DNA from: a phage
Sequence record: PZ452610.1
DNA: 64,000 bases
Reading direction: 5' to 3' (one strand)
In this document: piece after piece, positions 3,689 through 51,289 of the stretch
How the letters are laid out: every line of letters starts with the position of its first letter
Position numbering within the stretch: position 1 is the first letter of the stretch
The notes under the pieces: model-generated
The model's input: the letters and a program-made list of their open reading frames with translations, nothing else
The model's database searches: none
What the model was told of the DNA's origin: nothing
Translations under genes and position numbers: made by a program

Positions 3689-4108
3689 TTATGCGAAAGC
3701 AGCTGGGCTATATTTTTTAATTTGGAATTCAGGAACTACCATGAACTGTCCAGCGAAAACAATGTTATAAAGCTTAACACCATCTTCTACCCAACGGTCG
3801 CTAATAAATCCGGCGATTTGCTTAGTTTTCCACGGTGTTCCATCAGTTGCCGCAGCAATAGTGAATTCATGGTCTTTTTCAACAGAAACTGATCTGCATA
3901 ATCCCCATTTGAACGCTTTTTCTTCCGGTTCAATGAATTGGCTTTTAACGTAACCAATGTTACCATCAGCGTCACGAACTTTAACTTCGTTACGTCCAAA
4001 AACAGGATCACTCACAGAAAGAACTTCAACCAACTTCCCGGCAACTTTAGAGCGAGAAGCAACAGATACATATACGTAATCACCTGTAGAGAGATTTACA
4101 ATATTCAT
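3689..4108 (-). CDS. Hypothetical protein, 139 aa; member A of a 3-gene tandem paralog family
   Basis: Shares C-terminal motif GFISDRWVEDGVKLYNIVFAGQF with the next two ORFs; SD AAGGAA. Confidence 0.6.
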   Translation of the reverse strand: MNIVNLSTGDYVYVSVASRSKVAGKLVEVLSVSDPVFGRNEVKVRDADGNIGYVKSQFIEPEEKAFKWGLCRSVSVEKDHEFTIAAATDGTPWKTKQIAGFISDRWVEDGVKLYNIVFAGQFMVVPEFQIKKYSPAAFA

Positions 4109-4117
4109 AATAATTCC

Positions 4118-4573
4118 TTAAGCTTTACGAGGAGACACATAGCGAGTGATTTCAGATTCTTTAACAACTCGGAAGTCACCTAAGAATACGATATTGTATA
4201 ACTTTTCACCATCTTCAACCCATTGGTCACTAATGAAGCCACACATGGTATCAGTTGTGCTTGGATAGCCGTATTCATCGATGAAGTCAAATTCTTTATC
4301 AGTCTGGAATTCAACACCTTTACACAAGGCCCATTTGAACTGTGCATTAGGTTCAGTAGAAGCAAAATGAGCGCTCACATGAGTTTCCAAGAATTTAGGA
4401 CTTACGTAAGCATATTGAGTATCCTGACGTCCAAAACTAGGAATGATTCGAACTTTAACTTCTTTAATACGTCCCATGCCATTTGTGCGAAGTCCGACAA
4501 CTTCAACCAGACGACCTGCGGCTTTAGAACGGGATGCAGTTGATACACGCTTAATTTCACCAATAGTAATCAT
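4118..4573 (-). CDS. Hypothetical protein, 151 aa; paralog B
   Basis: C-terminal motif GFISDQWVEDGEKLYNIVFLGDF; ATG 4573 with SD AAGAGAGA; own promoter. Confidence 0.6.
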   Translation of the reverse strand: MITIGEIKRVSTASRSKAAGRLVEVVGLRTNGMGRIKEVKVRIIPSFGRQDTQYAYVSPKFLETHVSAHFASTEPNAQFKWALCKGVEFQTDKEFDFIDEYGYPSTTDTMCGFISDQWVEDGEKLYNIVFLGDFRVVKESEITRYVSPRKA

Positions 4574-4601
4574 AATTTCTCTCTTTGTTTAAATTGAATT
4601 C

Positions 4602-4630
4602 ACTATACTCCATCCATCCTTGGATGTACA
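4602..4630 (-). promoter_or_regulatory. Early promoter variant (TGTACA - spacer - TATAGT) for paralog B
   Basis: Minus strand GTACATCCAAGGATGGATGGAGTATAGT; same CCAAGGATGG spacer family as the 5159, 47180 and 48200 promoters. Confidence 0.45.
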
Positions 4631-4633
4631 ACA

Positions 4634-5128
4634 TTAATTTAGAATATTAACCACAGCACTACGTGGAACTACACTAAAATCACCTGCATGAACAACGTTC
4701 AGAAGTTCAACACCGTCTTCAATCCACTGGTCAGTTACCCAGCCACTTACCGGTCCAGCGAATGGTCGACGAATTGAAACTGCTTTACACAACAAGTCTG
4801 TAGGCTCGATAGGTTTAACTAAAGTACCGTACATAGAAGCGATGTCCATATCAAAGTGGAGACCATCTTTAACAGGTGCTTCTCCAATCAACAGTTCAAA
4901 GTCGGTGCTTGGAAGGGCGGTAGTAGAAATTGTACCATATGAATTTTTAATTTCTAAGAATAACCAAGGGCCTTCAGCTTGTTTGATGAAGTTAACAATA
5001 GTGAAACTATTACCTTGAGTGGCACCTAAAATTTCACAAAACTTTTCATAAGCTCGCACTGAAGCACCGTACCAGTTGATTTGTTTTTCGTCTTTCAGGA
5101 TGTAAGTGGCCGTAGTATTGATATTCAT
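4634..5128 (-). CDS. Hypothetical protein, about 164 aa; paralog C
   Basis: C-terminal motif GWVTDQWIEDGVELLNVVHAGDF; track start is TTG 5170, ATG 5128 (MNINTT...) preferred. Confidence 0.55.
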   Translation of the reverse strand: MNINTTATYILKDEKQINWYGASVRAYEKFCEILGATQGNSFTIVNFIKQAEGPWLFLEIKNSYGTISTTALPSTDFELLIGEAPVKDGLHFDMDIASMYGTLVKPIEPTDLLCKAVSIRRPFAGPVSGWVTDQWIEDGVELLNVVHAGDFSVVPRSAVVNILN

Positions 5129-5158
5129 AATGGTTTCCAGTTTGGTTAAGATAGAAAG

Positions 5159-5188
5159 ATTATACTCCAACCATCCTTGGTTGTAAAC
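5159..5188 (-). promoter_or_regulatory. T4-type early promoter (GTTTAC - 18 nt - TATAAT)
   Basis: Minus strand GTTTACAACCAAGGATGGTTGGAGTATAAT; near-identical copies at about 47180 and 48200. Confidence 0.55.
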
Positions 5189-5193
5189 TGTTT

Positions 5194-44868: not shown

Positions 44869-45225
44869 TTAACCGCGGAGTTTATTGATCTCTTCATAAT
44901 CAACCCAGGATTCTAGCCCAGATGGCAAATCAGATTCAATTTCCCAAAGAAGCTCTTCAATGGCTTGCAGGCGATTATATTCTTCAACGGTAATGGTAAC
45001 CATTGGTGCAACCGGTTCTGCCTTTTTAACAATCATATCGTTCATCAGGATGTAAAGGTCATCACGAACGACAGTGTCGTTCCAACCCCATGATTTGGCT
45101 TCATAAGCTAATGATGAAGGGAGCACATTTAAAACTTCAATAATAGTTGGAGCATCAGGACCAAGTTCATTGGCACAAACTTCGTATACATCTTGGAAAT
45201 CTTTAAGATTTAATGAATATGTCAT
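44869..45225 (-). CDS. Hypothetical acidic protein, 118 aa
   Basis: ORF. Confidence 0.5.
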   Translation of the reverse strand: MTYSLNLKDFQDVYEVCANELGPDAPTIIEVLNVLPSSLAYEAKSWGWNDTVVRDDLYILMNDMIVKKAEPVAPMVTITVEEYNRLQAIEELLWEIESDLPSGLESWVDYEEINKLRG

Positions 45226-45485
45226 TTAAAATATTCTCGTAGTTGGTCAAAGCCACCGATCGAAGTTCCATCAGGAGCAAACACTTGAGGCATAGTCAAT
45301 CCAACTTGTGATTCACGTCCAAGCTTAACCAGAAGCTCAGCAATTTTCTCATCATCAAAAACACCTTTTTCTGGCATAACGTTAATGAATTCGAATGGTT
45401 GTTTCTTAACAGTCAGCAATCGTTTCGCATTATCACAATAAATGCATTTATGAATAGTAGAGTCATACCCGTACACTTTAAACAT
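45222..45485 (-). CDS. nrdC: Glutaredoxin/thioredoxin NrdC
   Basis: MFKVYGYDSTIHKCIYCDNAKRLLTVKKQPFEFINVMPEKG... closely matches T4 NrdC; CIYC active site. Confidence 0.9.
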   Translation of the reverse strand: MFKVYGYDSTIHKCIYCDNAKRLLTVKKQPFEFINVMPEKGVFDDEKIAELLVKLGRESQVGLTMPQVFAPDGTSIGGFDQLREYFK

Positions 45486-45891
45486 TATTTTTCCTTTCAT
45501 CGATTAAATATGCAACGCCAAATACAATACATGTAATAAAACCTGTGATACAGATAGAAACCAACAACACTGTACCAAAGAACCAAATCAGGTTATCTTT
45601 AGTAGTTTGTTTTATATCCATCTCACGAATTTCTATAGCTATAGTATCACCTTTATTCAGAAGCGTATAAAACGACGGTGATACATGCCTGTCAAAAACT
45701 CGTCCTTGCTCATCTTTATAGACTGCAATAAATTCTAATTTAGAATATTTTCCTGTAGATTGACCTGAGATTAATTCCACTACCTCCACAGGAATTACTT
45801 TAGTTTCCATGTAAGTATTCTGACTGTTCCAAATGAATGGAATAATAGCAAAAACTAAAGCTGCGATAAAACAACGAAGGCTATATCTCAT
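45478..45891 (-). CDS. Membrane protein, 137 aa
   Basis: N- and C-terminal TM segments. Confidence 0.5.
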   Translation of the reverse strand: MRYSLRCFIAALVFAIIPFIWNSQNTYMETKVIPVEVVELISGQSTGKYSKLEFIAVYKDEQGRVFDRHVSPSFYTLLNKGDTIAIEIREMDIKQTTKDNLIWFFGTVLLVSICITGFITCIVFGVAYLIDERKNNV

Positions 45892-46196
45892 TATAATGTT
45901 CTCTCAAATTTGTGGAAGCATTTACGGCATTTCAATTTCAAGTTATCACTGGTCCAGTTAACCAGTTGGACTTGGATAGTTCCACATTCCGGACATGGAT
46001 GTTTTGCTGCCGATTTGGCAGCATTTTCACGTCGTTCAACCATTTTCATGATTTCGTTCCATGCTGGAGGAACGAACTCTTCTTCACCGTGGATTTTATC
46101 TCGCTGAACAAATTCAATCTTTGAACTATCGTCAATAAACTTAACCAAGCGGTGATTAGTGTTCATATCAATATCCTCTAAAAGACGTAGTTTCAT
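45891..46196 (-). CDS. Zinc-ribbon protein, 101 aa
   Basis: C-terminal CPECG...CRKC. Confidence 0.5.
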   Translation of the reverse strand: MKLRLLEDIDMNTNHRLVKFIDDSSKIEFVQRDKIHGEEEFVPPAWNEIMKMVERRENAAKSAAKHPCPECGTIQVQLVNWTSDNLKLKCRKCFHKFERTL

Positions 46197-47140
46197 TATA
46201 ACACCTCAATGGCATTTCGTAAACCATCCGCTTTCGCATTCAGAGCTTTTAACGATTTAGTCTGTTCTTTAATCTGGGCTTCGACTTCTTTCAGACGAGA
46301 TTTGAGATATTCGCGTTCTTCGGCCATGATATCGACCTTTTCTGCTTTAGGTTCTTTAATAGGCTTAAACACATTAGGGTTCTTCAGTTTAATTTTAATT
46401 CGAGAACTGAATAACATTGAACCGTTATCTTCGGTTTCGTCGAACATTTCAACAACATCCATAGTCTGTAACATCATGCGAAGTTTATAAGACAGAGAAC
46501 GAATGGTTTTGTTGCGCTTATTAATTTCTTCGGCTTTCATGGTACCGAGATTACGTGAGTAATAATAAGGAACCTGGATATCAATTGATAACGATGCGTT
46601 ACCATTACCAGTTGGTTTGAATACTGCAGTAACCCAATCTTTAACATGAACTTTATTTGTACGACCATCGCCGCCTGTGAATAATTTACGTGAATGTTTA
46701 AAAAGCATATTCACTTGGTTATTGAATTCACAAGCAAATTTATCAGCAAATTTAGTTTCAGGAATGGTGGAGAACCAATCAGCTAAATGAGTCTTTTTAA
46801 CATCATTAACAATAGTGAATTCAACCAAATCGGTTTTAGATGTCACAGATTTAATAAAGCTCGGTTTCATAAAGTTTTTAATGTTATCACGAGCCACAGT
46901 AGAAGATAATAAACGAGAACGTTTGAACCATTGAAGCAACGTCCCTAATGAATGAGAATATGCATTTTGAGTATCTTTACAGATATGATTTTCTTGGCCT
47001 GTGTATGTACCAAAATCGCGAAGAATACCACTTACTACATCTCGGTGTGGAACATCAAATCCTAATGAACCAGAAGCACGTTGGGCATGAACGTTAGCGA
47101 TAAGACCTGCAAAGTATTCAATGTAATGTGAACGTGTCAT
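46196..47140 (-). CDS. Hypothetical protein, 314 aa, C-terminal coiled coil
   Basis: First of three consecutive 314-331 aa ORFs, each behind a near-identical early promoter. Confidence 0.6.
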   Translation of the reverse strand: MTRSHYIEYFAGLIANVHAQRASGSLGFDVPHRDVVSGILRDFGTYTGQENHICKDTQNAYSHSLGTLLQWFKRSRLLSSTVARDNIKNFMKPSFIKSVTSKTDLVEFTIVNDVKKTHLADWFSTIPETKFADKFACEFNNQVNMLFKHSRKLFTGGDGRTNKVHVKDWVTAVFKPTGNGNASLSIDIQVPYYYSRNLGTMKAEEINKRNKTIRSLSYKLRMMLQTMDVVEMFDETEDNGSMLFSSRIKIKLKNPNVFKPIKEPKAEKVDIMAEEREYLKSRLKEVEAQIKEQTKSLKALNAKADGLRNAIEVL

Positions 47141-47179
47141 AATATTTTCCTCTCGTTAAGATAGATTCATTATACTCCA

Positions 47180-47210
47180 ACCATCCTTGGTTGTAAACTA
47201 TTTTATGATT
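47180..47210 (-). promoter_or_regulatory. Early promoter (GTTTAC - CCAAGGATGG spacer - TATAAT)
   Basis: Plus strand attatactccaaccatccttggttgtaaac; same as the 5159 promoter. Confidence 0.55.
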
Positions 47211-48162
47211 TTAACGCATTCATTGCGTTAAAAAGTTTAGAATACTGCAACTGGAGATTCGTTACAACACTTTGAGCATCACGAAGCTTAGCTTGTGCTT
47301 TGTCAAGTTCAACAGACAGTTGGTCCATAGTGGCCTTGATTTGATTGTAATGGTAATCTTCGGCCGGAAGAAGGTCATTAGAAACATTTAGTTTTACTGC
47401 AGACAGTTTGCACACATTTGGCAAACCTTTAAACATTGATTTACCCGAAGTAGAATAAGCACTTAGGACTTCGGCCTGTTCAATTGGGGTCCCAGTAAGC
47501 GATGCTTCAAACAATGCATTTTCCTTTTTAAGATTTTGATAATATTCGGAGTCTTTGTGCCACCATGGCGCAGGAACCTTTTTACCAATAGATACACGAG
47601 CCTGGATAGCGATATGGCCCTTATTCTTGATAAGGTCGATAATATTAAGCTCACGAGAATAAATCGCTTTAATCTGGTGGATATTATCACCTAAAACTTC
47701 CAACGCTTGGTGGAATACACGAGCGACATTATCATTCTTAGGTTTATACGTAAGAGTGAACTCATTCTCACTGATAACCATGATTTCCAACTTATCGTAA
47801 GTATATTTCAAATGTTTCATGTTAATTGCTTGAGGACGAATACGAGAAGCAATGGCCATCAGATTGTTAAGGTTATTCCGGAACTGCTTAGCGAAATATT
47901 GTCCTTCACCGCCAATACAAAAATTACGAAGTTTCTGTTTGGCCAATAAACGGCTGAACTCACCATTTTTAATGAACTCTTTAACGGGTGTGTTAGTAAC
48001 GCATTCAAATTGAGTAAACTTACGAGAAGTAATCCCATAATATGAACAGATTTCCTCAATCTCTTCAGGAGTCTTTACAGGCATACGGATAGGATTAGGT
48101 CCTGGAGTATATGCGTTCGAGGTAAATTCTTTGATAAGTTCTCTACGTGTAATAAAAGCCAT
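47203..48162 (-). CDS. Hypothetical protein, 319 aa, C-terminal coiled coil
   Basis: ORF with own promoter. Confidence 0.6.
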   Translation of the reverse strand: MAFITRRELIKEFTSNAYTPGPNPIRMPVKTPEEIEEICSYYGITSRKFTQFECVTNTPVKEFIKNGEFSRLLAKQKLRNFCIGGEGQYFAKQFRNNLNNLMAIASRIRPQAINMKHLKYTYDKLEIMVISENEFTLTYKPKNDNVARVFHQALEVLGDNIHQIKAIYSRELNIIDLIKNKGHIAIQARVSIGKKVPAPWWHKDSEYYQNLKKENALFEASLTGTPIEQAEVLSAYSTSGKSMFKGLPNVCKLSAVKLNVSNDLLPAEDYHYNQIKATMDQLSVELDKAQAKLRDAQSVVTNLQLQYSKLFNAMNALKS

Positions 48163-48199
48163 TTTATATTCCTCATGTTGAAAAATTTATTATACTCCA

Positions 48200-48230
48200 A
48201 CCATCCTTGGTTGTACATCATTCCTTAAGA
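48200..48230 (-). promoter_or_regulatory. Early promoter of the same family (TGTACA variant)
   Basis: Plus strand ttatactccaaccatccttggttgtacat. Confidence 0.5.
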
Positions 48231-49213
48231 AGTTTTACTACCTGAATAAGATTAGCTCGTTCTGTTTTATTTTTACCGTTTAAGCCTGCTAATCGTGAGA
48301 TTTCATCGTCAGTCTGTTGAATAGTTACATTAAGTTCGTTAATCAAAGCTTCAAAGTATTTGATTTGCTCAGCATGTTTTGATTCAAATTTCTGAACCGG
48401 AATAACGTCTTGGTTCAGTTCATCAATAAGGTCTTTAAGAGCATCTTCTTGGTTGATATCATATTCAACTTCTTTTATTTCTTCAACGAGCTCGTCTTTA
48501 TATCTAACGTCTTTTAGTCCTGGAGCTGGTCCTGAAATCTCTTCTTTAAGAGTACAAACATACCCAATACGGTATCCAACGCCGTCTCGCTTGATATCAA
48601 CTTCGTCGATAAATCCACAATGTTTAAGTCCAGAGCCGATTATGTCAAAATATCCTTGACGTCGTCCTTCAAACGTTACACGAACTACTAAGACGGTTTT
48701 GCCACCGACCTTTTGAAGCTCACATTTATAAAAGTTTGTTGAACCTGAATAACATGGATGAGTTTTAAAGTTCATCTGACGATCTAGGCCCATTTGTAAA
48801 CGTGCTGTTACGGCCATAAAACGTGTTTGGTTCTCGTTAAGATGAGCAACAATCCATTTCAAAGGCATTTTACCCTGTTCACGGCCGAACAAATCAGTAC
48901 GTCCTAGATTACGCAGGATGTTGTTAGAGTTAATCATCGACAGAACGTTAAGTTTATTCAGCGCGCTGAAGATTCCATCAGCCATTGATTTTCCATAACC
49001 TTTACACGCTTTAATAAGTGCTCGCGGCAGATTAGTATAGATTTCAGACGGCATATGAAAATCAAATTTACTAGTCAGTAATTGATGAACTTGGATAGCA
49101 ATTTGCTCATAATTAAGTGCTCTGCGATCGTTATGGTCTTTAAACCATACTTTAATCTGTGAAGCACATAAACCGTTAATTTCATGTTTTACCGCATCAG
49201 ATGTAATGCTCAT
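48218..49213 (-). CDS. Hypothetical protein, 331 aa, C-terminal coiled coil
   Basis: ORF with own promoter. Confidence 0.6.
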   Translation of the reverse strand: MSITSDAVKHEINGLCASQIKVWFKDHNDRRALNYEQIAIQVHQLLTSKFDFHMPSEIYTNLPRALIKACKGYGKSMADGIFSALNKLNVLSMINSNNILRNLGRTDLFGREQGKMPLKWIVAHLNENQTRFMAVTARLQMGLDRQMNFKTHPCYSGSTNFYKCELQKVGGKTVLVVRVTFEGRRQGYFDIIGSGLKHCGFIDEVDIKRDGVGYRIGYVCTLKEEISGPAPGLKDVRYKDELVEEIKEVEYDINQEDALKDLIDELNQDVIPVQKFESKHAEQIKYFEALINELNVTIQQTDDEISRLAGLNGKNKTERANLIQVVKLLKE

Positions 49214-49275
49214 AACTATTTCCTCGGATTGAATTGGAACTCAAAACCATTATAACCCGTCCTTGGGTAAAGCGT

Positions 49276-49803
49276 TTATGCGTGAACCGACTTTAAACGT
49301 TCTTCAAATTTCCGAAGAGTACTAATACGTTCTGCTTTCTGTTTTGTATAGTTTGCAATACGTTCTGAAGTGAGAGCGTATCGTTCGTTTACTGTTTCTT
49401 TCATGAAGTCAGGGATTTCACGAGAAGCTTTAATTTCATCAAACTTATCGAGTACTGCCTGGTCTTCAGCAATTAAATTTTCGTACATCTCGATATCTTT
49501 CTTGATGAAGTCGATATCTTCCTGGGTTACTTTGGATAAACGAGATGCTTTATCCTTTTTGTACTGCTCGTTAGTTTCACGAGACCAGAATAATGTACGT
49601 TTTTTGTTAGTGTTTTTGTAGACTTCCACAATTCCAACTGAATCGATGATAACAATCCAATTCCAGCGAGATTTGAAAATCTGACCTCCGTCCACGGTAA
49701 TCTCGTTACCATAAGCAATGTCATTAAAGAACTTACTTTGTGCTTCGGATTTAAATTTACCGTCGTTATAATTTACCAGGTTGAAAATATCTTTAGCGTT
49801 CAT
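49276..49803 (-). CDS. Hypothetical protein, 175 aa
   Basis: ORF; promoter GTTTAC - 17 nt - TATTAT at 49824-49858 upstream. Confidence 0.55.
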   Translation of the reverse strand: MNAKDIFNLVNYNDGKFKSEAQSKFFNDIAYGNEITVDGGQIFKSRWNWIVIIDSVGIVEVYKNTNKKRTLFWSRETNEQYKKDKASRLSKVTQEDIDFIKKDIEMYENLIAEDQAVLDKFDEIKASREIPDFMKETVNERYALTSERIANYTKQKAERISTLRKFEERLKSVHA

Positions 49804-49823: not shown

Positions 49824-49858
49824 TAGGTCTATAATAACATAACCATAGACCTTGTAAA
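49824..49858 (-). promoter_or_regulatory. Early promoter (GTTTAC - 17 nt - TATTAT) with inverted repeat AGGTCTAT/ATAGACCT
   Basis: Minus strand GTTTACAAGGTCTATGGTTATGTTATTATAGACCTATC. Confidence 0.55.
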
Positions 49859-50287: not shown

Positions 50288-51289
50288 TTATTTCAGTAAA
50301 GTAACTTCCGAGATTTCTTCCCAACCATCTTTATCAGTTGAAATAAAATCTGCTACATAAAGAGCCGTACGTAATGATACATTGCGAAGACGAGATACGT
50401 TAGCCTTCATCCAGGACAATGCTTTATACGTTTCTGCATCCGTCAGACCACGTTTCTGCATCATGTCAGTAGATAATATTACATCTTCAACTCGAACCAT
50501 AATCTCTTCATTAGAGTGTACTCCAAGGTCGAGATACACTGAACGAGATACTAAAGCTTGAAGGTGTGGAGCAAGTTTCGAACCCCGTTCTAACTCTTTA
50601 TCGATATCAACGTTTGTAATGAAAACGATAGTACCTTCAAACTCAAATTCTTTATCAATACCCTTATCCTCGAGATAAGATGACGCAGTGCTCCAACAAA
50701 CTTTGCGTTTATCTCCGGTATCTAATGCTGCTTTAAGAAGGTTCAGGATGTCCATATCTGAGAATACGTCAACGTCATCGATTAAGAGAACGCTGTCTTC
50801 ATCACGGTTGAGCCAAAGTTGTTCGTAAAGGCCAATACCAGAGATTTTACCATTAATGCTTTTGTATTTGATGAAACCATTATCATTAGCATTATTAAGT
50901 GCTTTATCCAGAGAATACGTCTTACCAATACCAGCTGCACCTGAAATAATGAGTGAACGAATTTTGCCATCGATAATGCCATTCGTCATCATGTTCATTA
51001 CTTTAAAGCGTTTGTTGATACGGGTTTTCATATCTTCAGTGCTTTCAACAACTGCAACTGGTGATGTCTCAACTCCTTCCATTACGATGTCTGATTTGAA
51101 GACCCATACTCCACGTTCAGAACCATCAATCATAACGAAAATTTTACCATCACCTAAGTGGGAACATTCAGGATTAAGCTTTGCCGGGAACCAGGTCTTT
51201 GTGGCAACATAAGAACCAGAGATTTCGTTATTACGATAGATACCTTTTTTGATTTGAACGTTGAACATTTTATTCTCCAATTTACTCAT
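50288..51289 (-). CDS. P-loop ATPase, 333 aa
   Basis: Walker A GAAGIGKT, Walker B VLLIDDVD. Confidence 0.65.
   Translation of the reverse strand: MSKLENKMFNVQIKKGIYRNNEISGSYVATKTWFPAKLNPECSHLGDGKIFVMIDGSERGVWVFKSDIVMEGVETSPVAVVESTEDMKTRINKRFKVMNMMTNGIIDGKIRSLIISGAAGIGKTYSLDKALNNANDNGFIKYKSINGKISGIGLYEQLWLNRDEDSVLLIDDVDVFSDMDILNLLKAALDTGDKRKVCWSTASSYLEDKGIDKEFEFEGTIVFITNVDIDKELERGSKLAPHLQALVSRSVYLDLGVHSNEEIMVRVEDVILSTDMMQKRGLTDAETYKALSWMKANVSRLRNVSLRTALYVADFISTDKDGWEEISEVTLLK

Follow-up and report, generated by a model that had tools for sequence, protein, structure and literature searches.

The SPbeta phage protein DSAD1 is an inhibitor of DSR2 and neutralises this SIR2-domain NADase defence protein. 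In bacteriophage T4, nrdC.5 allows a deletion mutant to infect once more those cells that carry Dsr1, a defence protein with a sirtuin domain (Srikant et al. 2022, PMC9391042); its RNA is early and its protein middle, and nrdC.3, nrdC.4, and nrdC.6 are early as RNA and as protein (Wolfram-Schauerte et al. 2022, PMC9697503 supplements). Also described are the promoter-early stem-loop (PeSL) cassettes, which recombine, with mini-circles as products of exchange between copies (Arbiol 2010, PMC2839356), and for which a PST/T4 consensus, TTTACW-N17-TAYWAT, has been published (Comeau 2014, PMC4122927). Here, we analysed a 64,000-nucleotide (nt) stretch of phage DNA (sequence record PZ452610.1, “the window” below), in which three consecutive minus-strand genes, w314, w319, and w331, would encode remote paralogs of one superfamily restricted to T4 phages. 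Both w314 and w319 would have a sigma-70 early promoter of their own, lodged in a cassette of about 30 nt, as the consensus match and the T4 timing data suggest, and the spacer of this cassette holds an inverted repeat whose arms covary.

The 3,075-bp region of the three genes is 100% identical to Escherichia coli O157 typing phages 3, 6, and 13 and 97% identical to many RB69-like phages; typing phage 3 is a Mosigvirus of the Tevenvirinae (NCBI lineage). Judging from these identities, the window is that of a Mosigvirus, an RB69-like T4-type phage, and the locus, as read from its genes, corresponds to nrdC.3/nrdC.5/nrdC.6 within the hyperplastic region nrdC-nrdC.10. The original prediction had reported three consecutive proteins of 314-331 amino acids (aa), and three consecutive minus-strand open reading frames (ORFs) of 314, 319, and 331 aa are indeed found (Table 1). 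It was largely right but incomplete, as it missed the nrdC.3/.5/.6 identity, the anti-Dsr1 relative, and the covarying hairpin; what is added here is this identity with its anti-Dsr1 precedent, evidence that the proteins form a single fast-evolving superfamily sharing a C-terminal helix, the mosaic junctions at the cassettes, and the covarying hairpin in the spacer. The gene families and the promoter type are of known kinds; the RNA element is possibly new.

Each of the three proteins could be assigned to a family. The w314 protein is homologous over its full length to the NrdC.3/NrdC.4 family: it is the orthologue of T4 NrdC.3 (58% identity over 314 aa), also matches NrdC.4 (E-value 5e-5), and falls into phrog_1435 (4e-101), as does T4 NrdC.4; its database relatives carry PF26897. 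The w319 protein belongs to PF23882 (DUF7235), with 413.7 bits over residues 15-318 for a cut-off of 30 (T4 NrdC.5 scores 420.6 bits on the same model), and to phrog_2351 (3e-99). It shares with T4 NrdC.5 the Pfam and PHROG families, the genomic slot (between the nrdC.6-type and the nrdC.4/.3-type genes, as compared with T4 and Dhakavirus LHE83), the length class, and the C-terminal helix; it differs by an identity of only 25% (over 308 aa, E-value 3e-10) and by the fact that the Mosigvirus type forms an isolated 50% cluster, anti-Dsr1 activity being known for the T4 protein alone. The w331 protein belongs to the NrdC.6 family through phrog_2257 (4e-127 over residues 1-331), and its relatives carry PF26899. 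Its resemblance to T4 NrdC.6 concerns the N-terminal and central region (37% identity over residues 27-159, facing the first 170 residues of T4 NrdC.6, 2e-18), whereas its tail helix is absent from the T4 protein, which covers positions 1-266 of the phrog_2257 profile only. T4 NrdC.6 (275 aa; L001:8067-8894) stops about 45 residues early, without the terminal heptad helix that is kept in w331 and in the Dhakavirus homologue.

All three PHROG families are of unknown function in PHROG, and the database relatives are shallow and come from T4-type phages only. An exhaustive hmmsearch with the w319 profile over 1.84e9 representatives returned nothing beyond its own 50% cluster, and its relatives in IMG/VR amount to two near-identical contigs; a PDB sequence search with the three proteins gave coiled-coil noise and no relative with a solved structure, and an NCBIfam search gave no match. 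The three genes occur in more than 100 sequenced phages, where they are labelled hypothetical or, wrongly, “thioredoxin”. Many GenBank records give this name to w314-, w319-, and w331-type genes as well as to nrdC.8-.10, none of which has a thioredoxin domain; the label apparently spread from the name of the neighbouring nrdC gene.

Table 1. Features of the nrdC locus and copies of the promoter cassette, in window positions (aa, amino acids; AF2, AlphaFold2; pLDDT, predicted local distance difference test; dG, folding free energy in kcal/mol).
Feature	Position	Strand	Basis or detail
w314, NrdC.3-type, 314 aa	46196..47140	minus	T4 NrdC.3 match and phrog_1435
w319, NrdC.5-type, 319 aa, Pfam DUF7235	47203..48162	minus	PF23882 and T4 NrdC.5 match
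w331, NrdC.6-type, 331 aa	48218..49213	minus	T4 NrdC.6 match and phrog_2257
Heptad helix of w314, aa 265-314	46199..46348	minus	Heptad score; AF2 helix 273-313, pLDDT 66-80; family alignment
Heptad helix of w319, aa 267-319	47206..47364	minus	Heptad score; AF2 helix 267-318; hhalign 88.6% to NrdC.3/4 C-terminus
Heptad helix of w331, aa 281-331	48221..48373	minus	Heptad score 281-311; hhalign 74% to hub family
Long-form cassette before w314	47169..47197	minus	-35 TTTACA 47197-47192; hairpin 47193-47178; GGAG 47178-47175; -10 TATAAT 47174-47169
Long-form cassette before w319	48189..48217	minus	-35 TGTACA 48217-48212, abuts w331 stop codon; hairpin 48213-48198; -10 48194-48189
Short-form degenerate cassette before w331	49249..49272	minus	CTTTAC 49272-49267; weak hairpin ACCC-AAGGAC-GGGT 49268-49255; TATAAT 49254-49249
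Long-form cassette, identical copy, before MotB.1-like gene (4634-5128)	5159..5188	minus	
Variant cassette before MotB-like gene (4118-4573)	4602..4630	minus	TGTACA; CATCCA-AGGA-TGGATG (compensatory A-T to T-A); TATAGT
10-bp stem-loop, UUUUUAACGC-AAUGA-GCGUUAAAA	47209..47233	minus	Last w319 codons, about 11 nt before w314 -35; dG -9.9, z -3.7, 0/200 shuffles as stable
nrdC.10-like	50288-51289	minus	78% aa identity to T4
nrdC.9-like	between nrdC.10-like and nrdC.8-like	minus	
nrdC.8-like	49276-49803	minus	83% aa identity to T4
nrdC.2-like	45891-46196	minus	49% aa identity to T4
nrdC.7-like	45478-45891	minus	41% aa identity to T4
nrdC	45222-45500	minus	90% aa identity to T4

A probable kinship of the three proteins appears at the level of profiles. 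With the conserved NrdC.10 as an anchor, we examined the corresponding genomic slot of eight further T4-type genera; most of them have one to three proteins of 260-340 aa there. In iterative hidden Markov model (HMM) searches over all the ORFs of the sampled loci, NrdC.3 joined NrdC.4 over about 220 N-terminal residues, a link that holds after removal of the C-terminal 75 residues, and all three window proteins reached a bridging protein, Q7622_338 (phrog_26858, the hub family). Without iteration, an HMM of the NrdC.5 C-terminus matched Q7622_338 (E-value 1e-6) as well as CF1_335 and T4 NrdC.3 (about 2e-3), and none of the reversed-sequence decoys scored against the C-terminal HMM. Among the PHROG cross-hits, whose E-values range overall from 1e-4 to 1e-7, NrdC.4-type proteins match phrog_26858 over residues 52-316, and Q7622_338 matches the NrdC.6 family over 151-336 (1.5e-6) and the NrdC.5 family over 269-336 (1.8e-7). 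The final hhalign comparison, in local mode with enriched alignments, joined NrdC.3/4 to NrdC.5 (88.6%, 70 C-terminal columns; the sole direct link among the window families), NrdC.5 to the hub (70% over 200 columns), NrdC.6 to the hub (74% over 176 columns of the central and C-terminal regions), NrdC.3/4 to the KpV477 family (92%, 133 central columns), and the hub to the KpV477 family (68%), with 15 of 15 reversed-profile controls at or below 0.5%; direct NrdC.5-NrdC.6 and NrdC.3/4-NrdC.6 alignments were not significant. The hhalign signal arose only once T4 and Dhakavirus paralogs and the bridging families had been added. The AF2 models of w314 and w319, albeit weak, present the same order of elements, i.e., N-terminal helices, then a long central helix, three strands and one helix, two more strands, and, after a linker, a terminal helix of 41-52 residues, the N-terminal helical domain of w314 (1-85) being modelled confidently. 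We consider it likely that the three proteins are remote paralogs whose C-terminal module is shared and whose N-terminus is hypervariable; each would combine a fast-evolving N-terminal helical part, a weakly conserved core made of the central helix and a beta-sheet, a proline-containing linker, and a C-terminal heptad helix of about 45 residues.

The original prediction had described coiled-coil proteins with divergent N-termini and heptad-rich C-termini. The latter contrast is borne out by the heptad score and by the terminal helices of the w314 and w319 AF2 models; the coiled-coil designation suits the last 45-50 residues, about 15% of each protein, to which the heptad periodicity is limited, but not the other 85% or so, predicted to be globular alpha/beta. 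When twelve proteins from six families are compared, their C-terminal modules align from end to end and have in common the proline-containing linker and the ending R-x-[KR]-L-x-x-A-h-x-x-L-K. The C-terminal helix probably serves in oligomerisation or docking.

Upstream of the genes, a 29-nt string is present without mismatch at 47170-47198 and 5160-5188 and with two mismatches at 48190-48218; shuffled sequences give 0 matches. On the coding strand, it reads gTTTACA-accaaggatggttggag-TATAAT, that is, a -35 hexamer, a 17-nt spacer, and a -10 hexamer, with TGTACA as the -35 in the w319 copy; scored as T4-type early promoters, 47197-47169 reaches 11/12 and 48217-48189 reaches 10/12. Our catalogue of early-type promoters, built over the whole window from sites upstream of a Shine-Dalgarno (SD) sequence and an ORF, contains 16 candidates, all on the minus strand. 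The spacer is identical at 17 of 17 positions among the three cassette copies, and every other promoter pair shares 8 or fewer (median 5); the cassette is therefore a real sub-family, which goes beyond the promoter consensus. The promoter claim of the original prediction is borne out in part. Early expression of w314 and w319 is plausible, given these canonical sigma-70/T4-early-type promoters and the T4 timing.

The claim that each gene stands behind the same promoter is right for w314 and w319, which share the spacer, but not for w331: its element near 49250 is a shortened, different form, cTTTAC-ccaaggacgggt-TATAAT, with hexamers 11-12 nt apart and no TG of an extended -10, and it does not fit the early-promoter pattern. 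It is homologous to an element located after nrdC.8 in T4 and in LHE83, where it reads TG-G-TATAAT (extended -10). Because the canonical spacing is lacking, w331 may rely on read-through from the nrdC.8-like promoter at 49858. As for the small paralogs at 4600-5190, said to be driven by the same cassette, it precedes two of three MotB/MotB.1-family genes, one with an exact copy and one with a variant.

These paralogs (139, 151, and 164 aa; 3689-5128, minus strand) lie in tandem downstream of dexA, where T4 has motB.2, motB.1, and motB; they are 30-43% identical to each other and 34-47% identical to T4 MotB or MotB.1, and two have the AGGA-hairpin cassette. A dexA.1/dexA.2-like label for them was dropped, as BLAST places them in the MotB/MotB.1 family. 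In T4, nrdC.5 and nrdC.6 have no promoter cassette in front.

The spacer is an inverted repeat, CAACCA-AGGA-TGGTTG, and other copies keep the pairing with other bases: CATCCA/TGGATG (MotB-like gene and Dhakavirus contigs), CTTCCA/TGGAGG, CAGCCA/TGGTTG, and TTGTATCA/TGATATAA, to which T4 adds TTGCCACA/TGTGGTAT (nrdC.4), TTACCACA/TGTGGTAT (rIIA.1), and AGCCA/TGGCT (nrdC.3); in the short-form variant TTATACCA/TGGTATAA, the 3' arm is the -10 box. Mosig-, Tequatro-, and Dhakavirus as well as metagenomes supplied the variants, in long and short forms. Covariation was measured on 20-nt segments of eight distinct variants, as MAFFT on 40-nt cores broke the hairpin register: 97.9% of the cells are paired, four of the six pairs change on both sides, and the covariation score is 0.80 versus 0.19 for shuffles (0/500 reach 0.80) and 0.03-0.12 for slid registers. 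Four G·T cells pair on the sense strand only and would be A·C mismatches on the opposite strand, which favours an RNA structure. The folding free energy is -6.9 to -8.4 kcal/mol versus about -2.5 for shuffles (-6.9 versus about -2.2 for the w314 copy), with stems of 5-8 pairs. T4 has exactly four such hairpins, all intergenic and placed before rIIA.1, nrdC.3, nrdC.4, and nrdC.7, and generic NGGA hairpins are not enriched (36 versus about 29 in shuffles). Rfam gave no match over the whole window at gathering thresholds. A loose DNA pattern, CAAGGATGN{3,9}TATAAT, was discarded for IMG/VR searches because of chance matches in unrelated contigs. One more hairpin, of 8 pairs (GTTTTCTA-AGGA-TGGAAAAT, with a UA-AGGA-UG core), lies within the vs.1-like coding sequence (window 57481, minus strand; T4 62144) and is conserved in both; it could be coding conservation or a further copy of the RNA signal.

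The hairpin stands 7-13 nt past the upstream stop codon, and transcripts from the cassette's own promoter do not contain it. Sense RNA reading through from upstream would carry the invariant CA-AGGA-UG core and its covarying stem, followed, in the long form, by a near-consensus RegB site. An intrinsic terminator was ruled out for want of a U-tract and an RNase III site because the stem is too short. The hairpin would most likely bind a factor or guide processing, making read-through transcripts differ from promoter-proximal ones. One has to keep in mind the sequestration of the ribosome-binding site (RBS) of the T4 lysozyme type, where an RNA structure exists in long transcripts and not in those from the proximal promoter. 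The cassette hairpin is likewise limited to read-through transcripts, an effect that ordinary early promoters of the window obtain through anti-SD spacers; unlike the lysozyme-type structure, the AGGA-loop hairpin forms on its own, without pairing to the SD. The ordinary promoters in question (3683-3627, 16728-16672, and 17162-17102, minus strand) have pyrimidine-rich spacers, TCTCCTCTGG, TCTCCGGTAGTTG, and TCTTCCTCT, complementary to the SD region of the gene they drive. When their RNA is folded from the -35 to the ATG, the SD is fully paired (-23.1, -22.6, and -10.0 kcal/mol); in a fold that begins past the -10, it stays free (0 to -0.4). Owing to this pairing, read-through transcripts of these genes would be translationally silent.

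The cassettes also lie at places where related genomes part. DNA similarity between the window and T4 spans nrdC.8 and ends at 49245, inside the short-form element, after which nrdC.7 comes next in T4 and w331 in the window. An 88-nt segment of cassette plus leader (47205-47120) recurs in LHE83, placed there before an NrdC.4-type gene; T4 has both nrdC.3 and nrdC.4, the window the.3 type only, and LHE83 the.4 type only. With these boundaries observed, the cassette may mark junctions at which related phages swap genes, as in PeSL. It resembles PeSL as a short conserved unit of sigma-70-type early promoter, SD, and start codon, found in the hyperplastic region at the borders of gene replacements. 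It differs in its stem-loop: that of PeSL is upstream of the promoter and terminates transcription, whereas here the hairpin is inside the -35/-10 spacer, with an AGGA loop and no U-tract. The only PeSL-like upstream stem-loop of the set is at 47209-47233, followed by an A-rich stretch; the one before the MotB-like cassette is marginal (z -2.4), and three copies have none.

What the proteins may do is suggested by T4. The identity to T4 is uneven along the locus, the 25% of w319 standing against 83% for the flanking NrdC.8, 78% for NrdC.10, and 90% for NrdC; by this comparison, w314, w319, and w331 appear to evolve far faster than their neighbours. The anti-Dsr1 activity of T4 NrdC.5 together with this fast divergence leads us to infer a counter-defence or host-takeover role for the array, whose early-expressed products would have differing specificities. 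Since w319 is only 25% identical to T4 NrdC.5, an anti-Dsr1 activity of its own would be putative. DSAD1 and T4 NrdC.5 are both phage proteins acting against SIR2-type defence, in different phage groups and on different target paralogs; no sequence relationship between them came up, none having been looked for.

Several other accounts of the cassette were considered. CsrA selects, in systematic evolution of ligands by exponential enrichment (SELEX), RUACARGGAUGU with GGA in a hairpin loop (PMC4347634). A CsrA dimer might thus bridge the loop GGA and the SD GGA some 30-35 nt downstream on read-through RNA and repress translation, or abundant early transcripts might sponge CsrA, own-promoter transcripts escaping; we find this unlikely. 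The invariant core CAAGGAUG fits CARGGAUG and sits, as in CsrB/CsrC hairpins and CsrA-repressed leaders, in the loop of a short hairpin, here an AGGA tetraloop on a covarying stem; within the T4 variant CCACAAGGAUGUGG, ACAAGGAUGU agrees with ACARGGAUGU at 10/10 (10/12 over the whole consensus, with ACA); GGA is present in the downstream SDs; and CsrB is unusually stabilised in T4 infection (PMC9697503). However, window variants match at 9/12, with CCA, as in most copies, where ACA is reportedly invariant; genomes have 4-5 copies only; GGA-rich SD-like loops may have other origins; unlike CsrB/CsrC hairpins, the element is phage-encoded and overlaps a DNA promoter; and a literature search gave no link between CsrA and T4 gene expression. 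A broader model, in which the same 30 nt or so act as a DNA early promoter and as an RNA hairpin with a CsrA-type CA-AGGA-UG, CsrA or a phage analogue tells read-through from promoter-proximal mRNAs of a modular array, and the paralogs join a shared docking helix to N-terminal “warheads” against different defences (Dsr1 for NrdC.5), seems rather unlikely to us. The hairpin may instead belong to an RNA processing module, in which RegB with S1, whose site is GGAGRAYARAA in single-stranded RNA (PMC1702504), cuts the GGAG 3' of the stem in read-through RNA, uncoupling the cistrons and leaving the hairpin as a protective 3' end of the upstream mRNA. The long forms, GGAGUAUAAU(A/G), match this site at 9/11 (U being tolerated at position 5), the short distance to the upstream stop codon suits such a role, and all three genes have an SD of the GAGG type instead of GGAG; yet the short forms and the T4 nrdC.4 and rIIA.1 variants have the hairpin and no GGAG, so RegB cannot account for the conserved core, the first G of GGAG lies within the stem, and the invariant AGGA loop is left unexplained. 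Such a module is as doubtful, in our opinion, as a CsrA site.

The repeat could also work as DNA, with no RNA role, either as an operator for a dimeric repressor of these early promoters, since its place, exactly between -35 and -10, is the classic one for an operator, or as a cruciform or recombination hot spot, in line with the mosaic junctions and with the recombination of PeSL cassettes (PMC2839356). Against this, the arms differ within one genome while the pairing is kept (CAACCA/TGGTTG versus CATCCA/TGGATG), which speaks against a protein that recognises the arms by their bases; the four G·T cells pair in sense RNA only, and cruciform extrusion is unlikely for a stem of 6 bp with a loop of 4 nt. 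We judge the DNA-level account quite improbable. Finally, the genes might be ordinary phage ORFans encoding unrelated proteins with convergent coiled-coil tails, the cassette identity reflecting recent gene conversion and no extra function. This improbable account would fit three different Pfam/PHROG families without direct pairwise similarity and identical 30-mers within one genome, as gene conversion yields; it agrees poorly with profile links that are far above the reversed controls and reach non-coiled-coil regions, with the common order of elements in the two AF2 models, and with a hairpin that covaries over three genera in long and short forms, which gene conversion alone does not predict.

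We favour an nrdC.3/.5/.6 paralog array with a counter-defence role and a three-function cassette, and regard this explanation, taken as a whole, as moderately likely. A number of observations weigh against it. Pairwise BLASTP among the three proteins finds no similarity, and hhalign with shallow alignments (effective number of sequences about 1.5) gave no signal; once the tails are removed, w314, w319, and w331 fall into separate groups, and the superfamily links are transitive, at 68-92% probability, and run in part via the coiled-coil segment. The AF2 models of w319 and w314 are weak (pLDDT 42 and 57), and Foldseek returned nothing at E ≤ 1e-3 against PDB and, against BFVD, the orthologue and uninformative matches of low template modelling (TM) score to uncharacterised T4-type proteins. 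The profile and structure comparison called for by the original prediction thus connects the three proteins through bridging families, with no direct pairwise similarity and weak fold models. The hairpin alignment holds eight distinct variants only, and its inner four pairs are partly fixed by the selection filters; the two outer pairs, outside any filter, are paired in 15 of 16 cells. The w331 short-form hairpin barely folds (-4.9 kcal/mol, no different from shuffles), an upstream stem-loop as in PeSL terminators is found at one of five cassettes, without a U-tract, and T4 NrdC.5 is the sole family member with a demonstrated function.

Around the array, the minus-strand gene order was read against the T4 reference annotation, and synteny with T4 extends from nrdC through nrdC.10, in the series nrdC.10-like, nrdC.9-like, nrdC.8-like, w331, w319, w314, nrdC.2-like, nrdC.7-like, and nrdC. 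Unlike the T4 segment, the window has no NrdC.4-type gene and no nrdC.1 homologue, and its nrdC.7-like gene is placed elsewhere: this gene, for a 137-aa membrane protein, is flanked by nrdC.2 and by nrdC, whose start it overlaps, whereas T4 has nrdC.7 between nrdC.8 and nrdC.6. A second promoter-proximal repeat family, made of the -10 and the first 15 or so transcribed bases (TAtTATAGACCTATCAAC in the window, TACTATACAACTATCAACT in T4), is common to the promoters of nrdC.8, nrdC.10, and other early genes; it is found at 49858-49803, at 16728-16690, and upstream of 51289 in the window and upstream of nrdC.8 and nrdC.10 in T4. A promoter-like 10/12 match (TTTACG, 17 nt, TG-TATAAT) at 46223-46195, minus strand, overlaps the last w314 codons; as its -10 overlaps the TAATG stop/start shared with the nrdC.2-like gene, no leader is possible, and the match probably arose by chance.

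Should the hairpin prove functionless, the locus would be no more than an ordinary stretch of a well-known hyperplastic region; if the proposed roles are true, one sequence would serve as a DNA promoter, an RNA signal, and a recombination junction. Few inhibitors of a SIR2-type defence are known, and T4 NrdC.5, which acts against Dsr1, is one of them. If NrdC.3, NrdC.4, NrdC.5, and NrdC.6 are paralogs on one scaffold, two to four counter-defence candidates would adjoin NrdC.5 in every T4-, RB69-, and JS98-type phage, and the shared helix would be a handle to a common partner.

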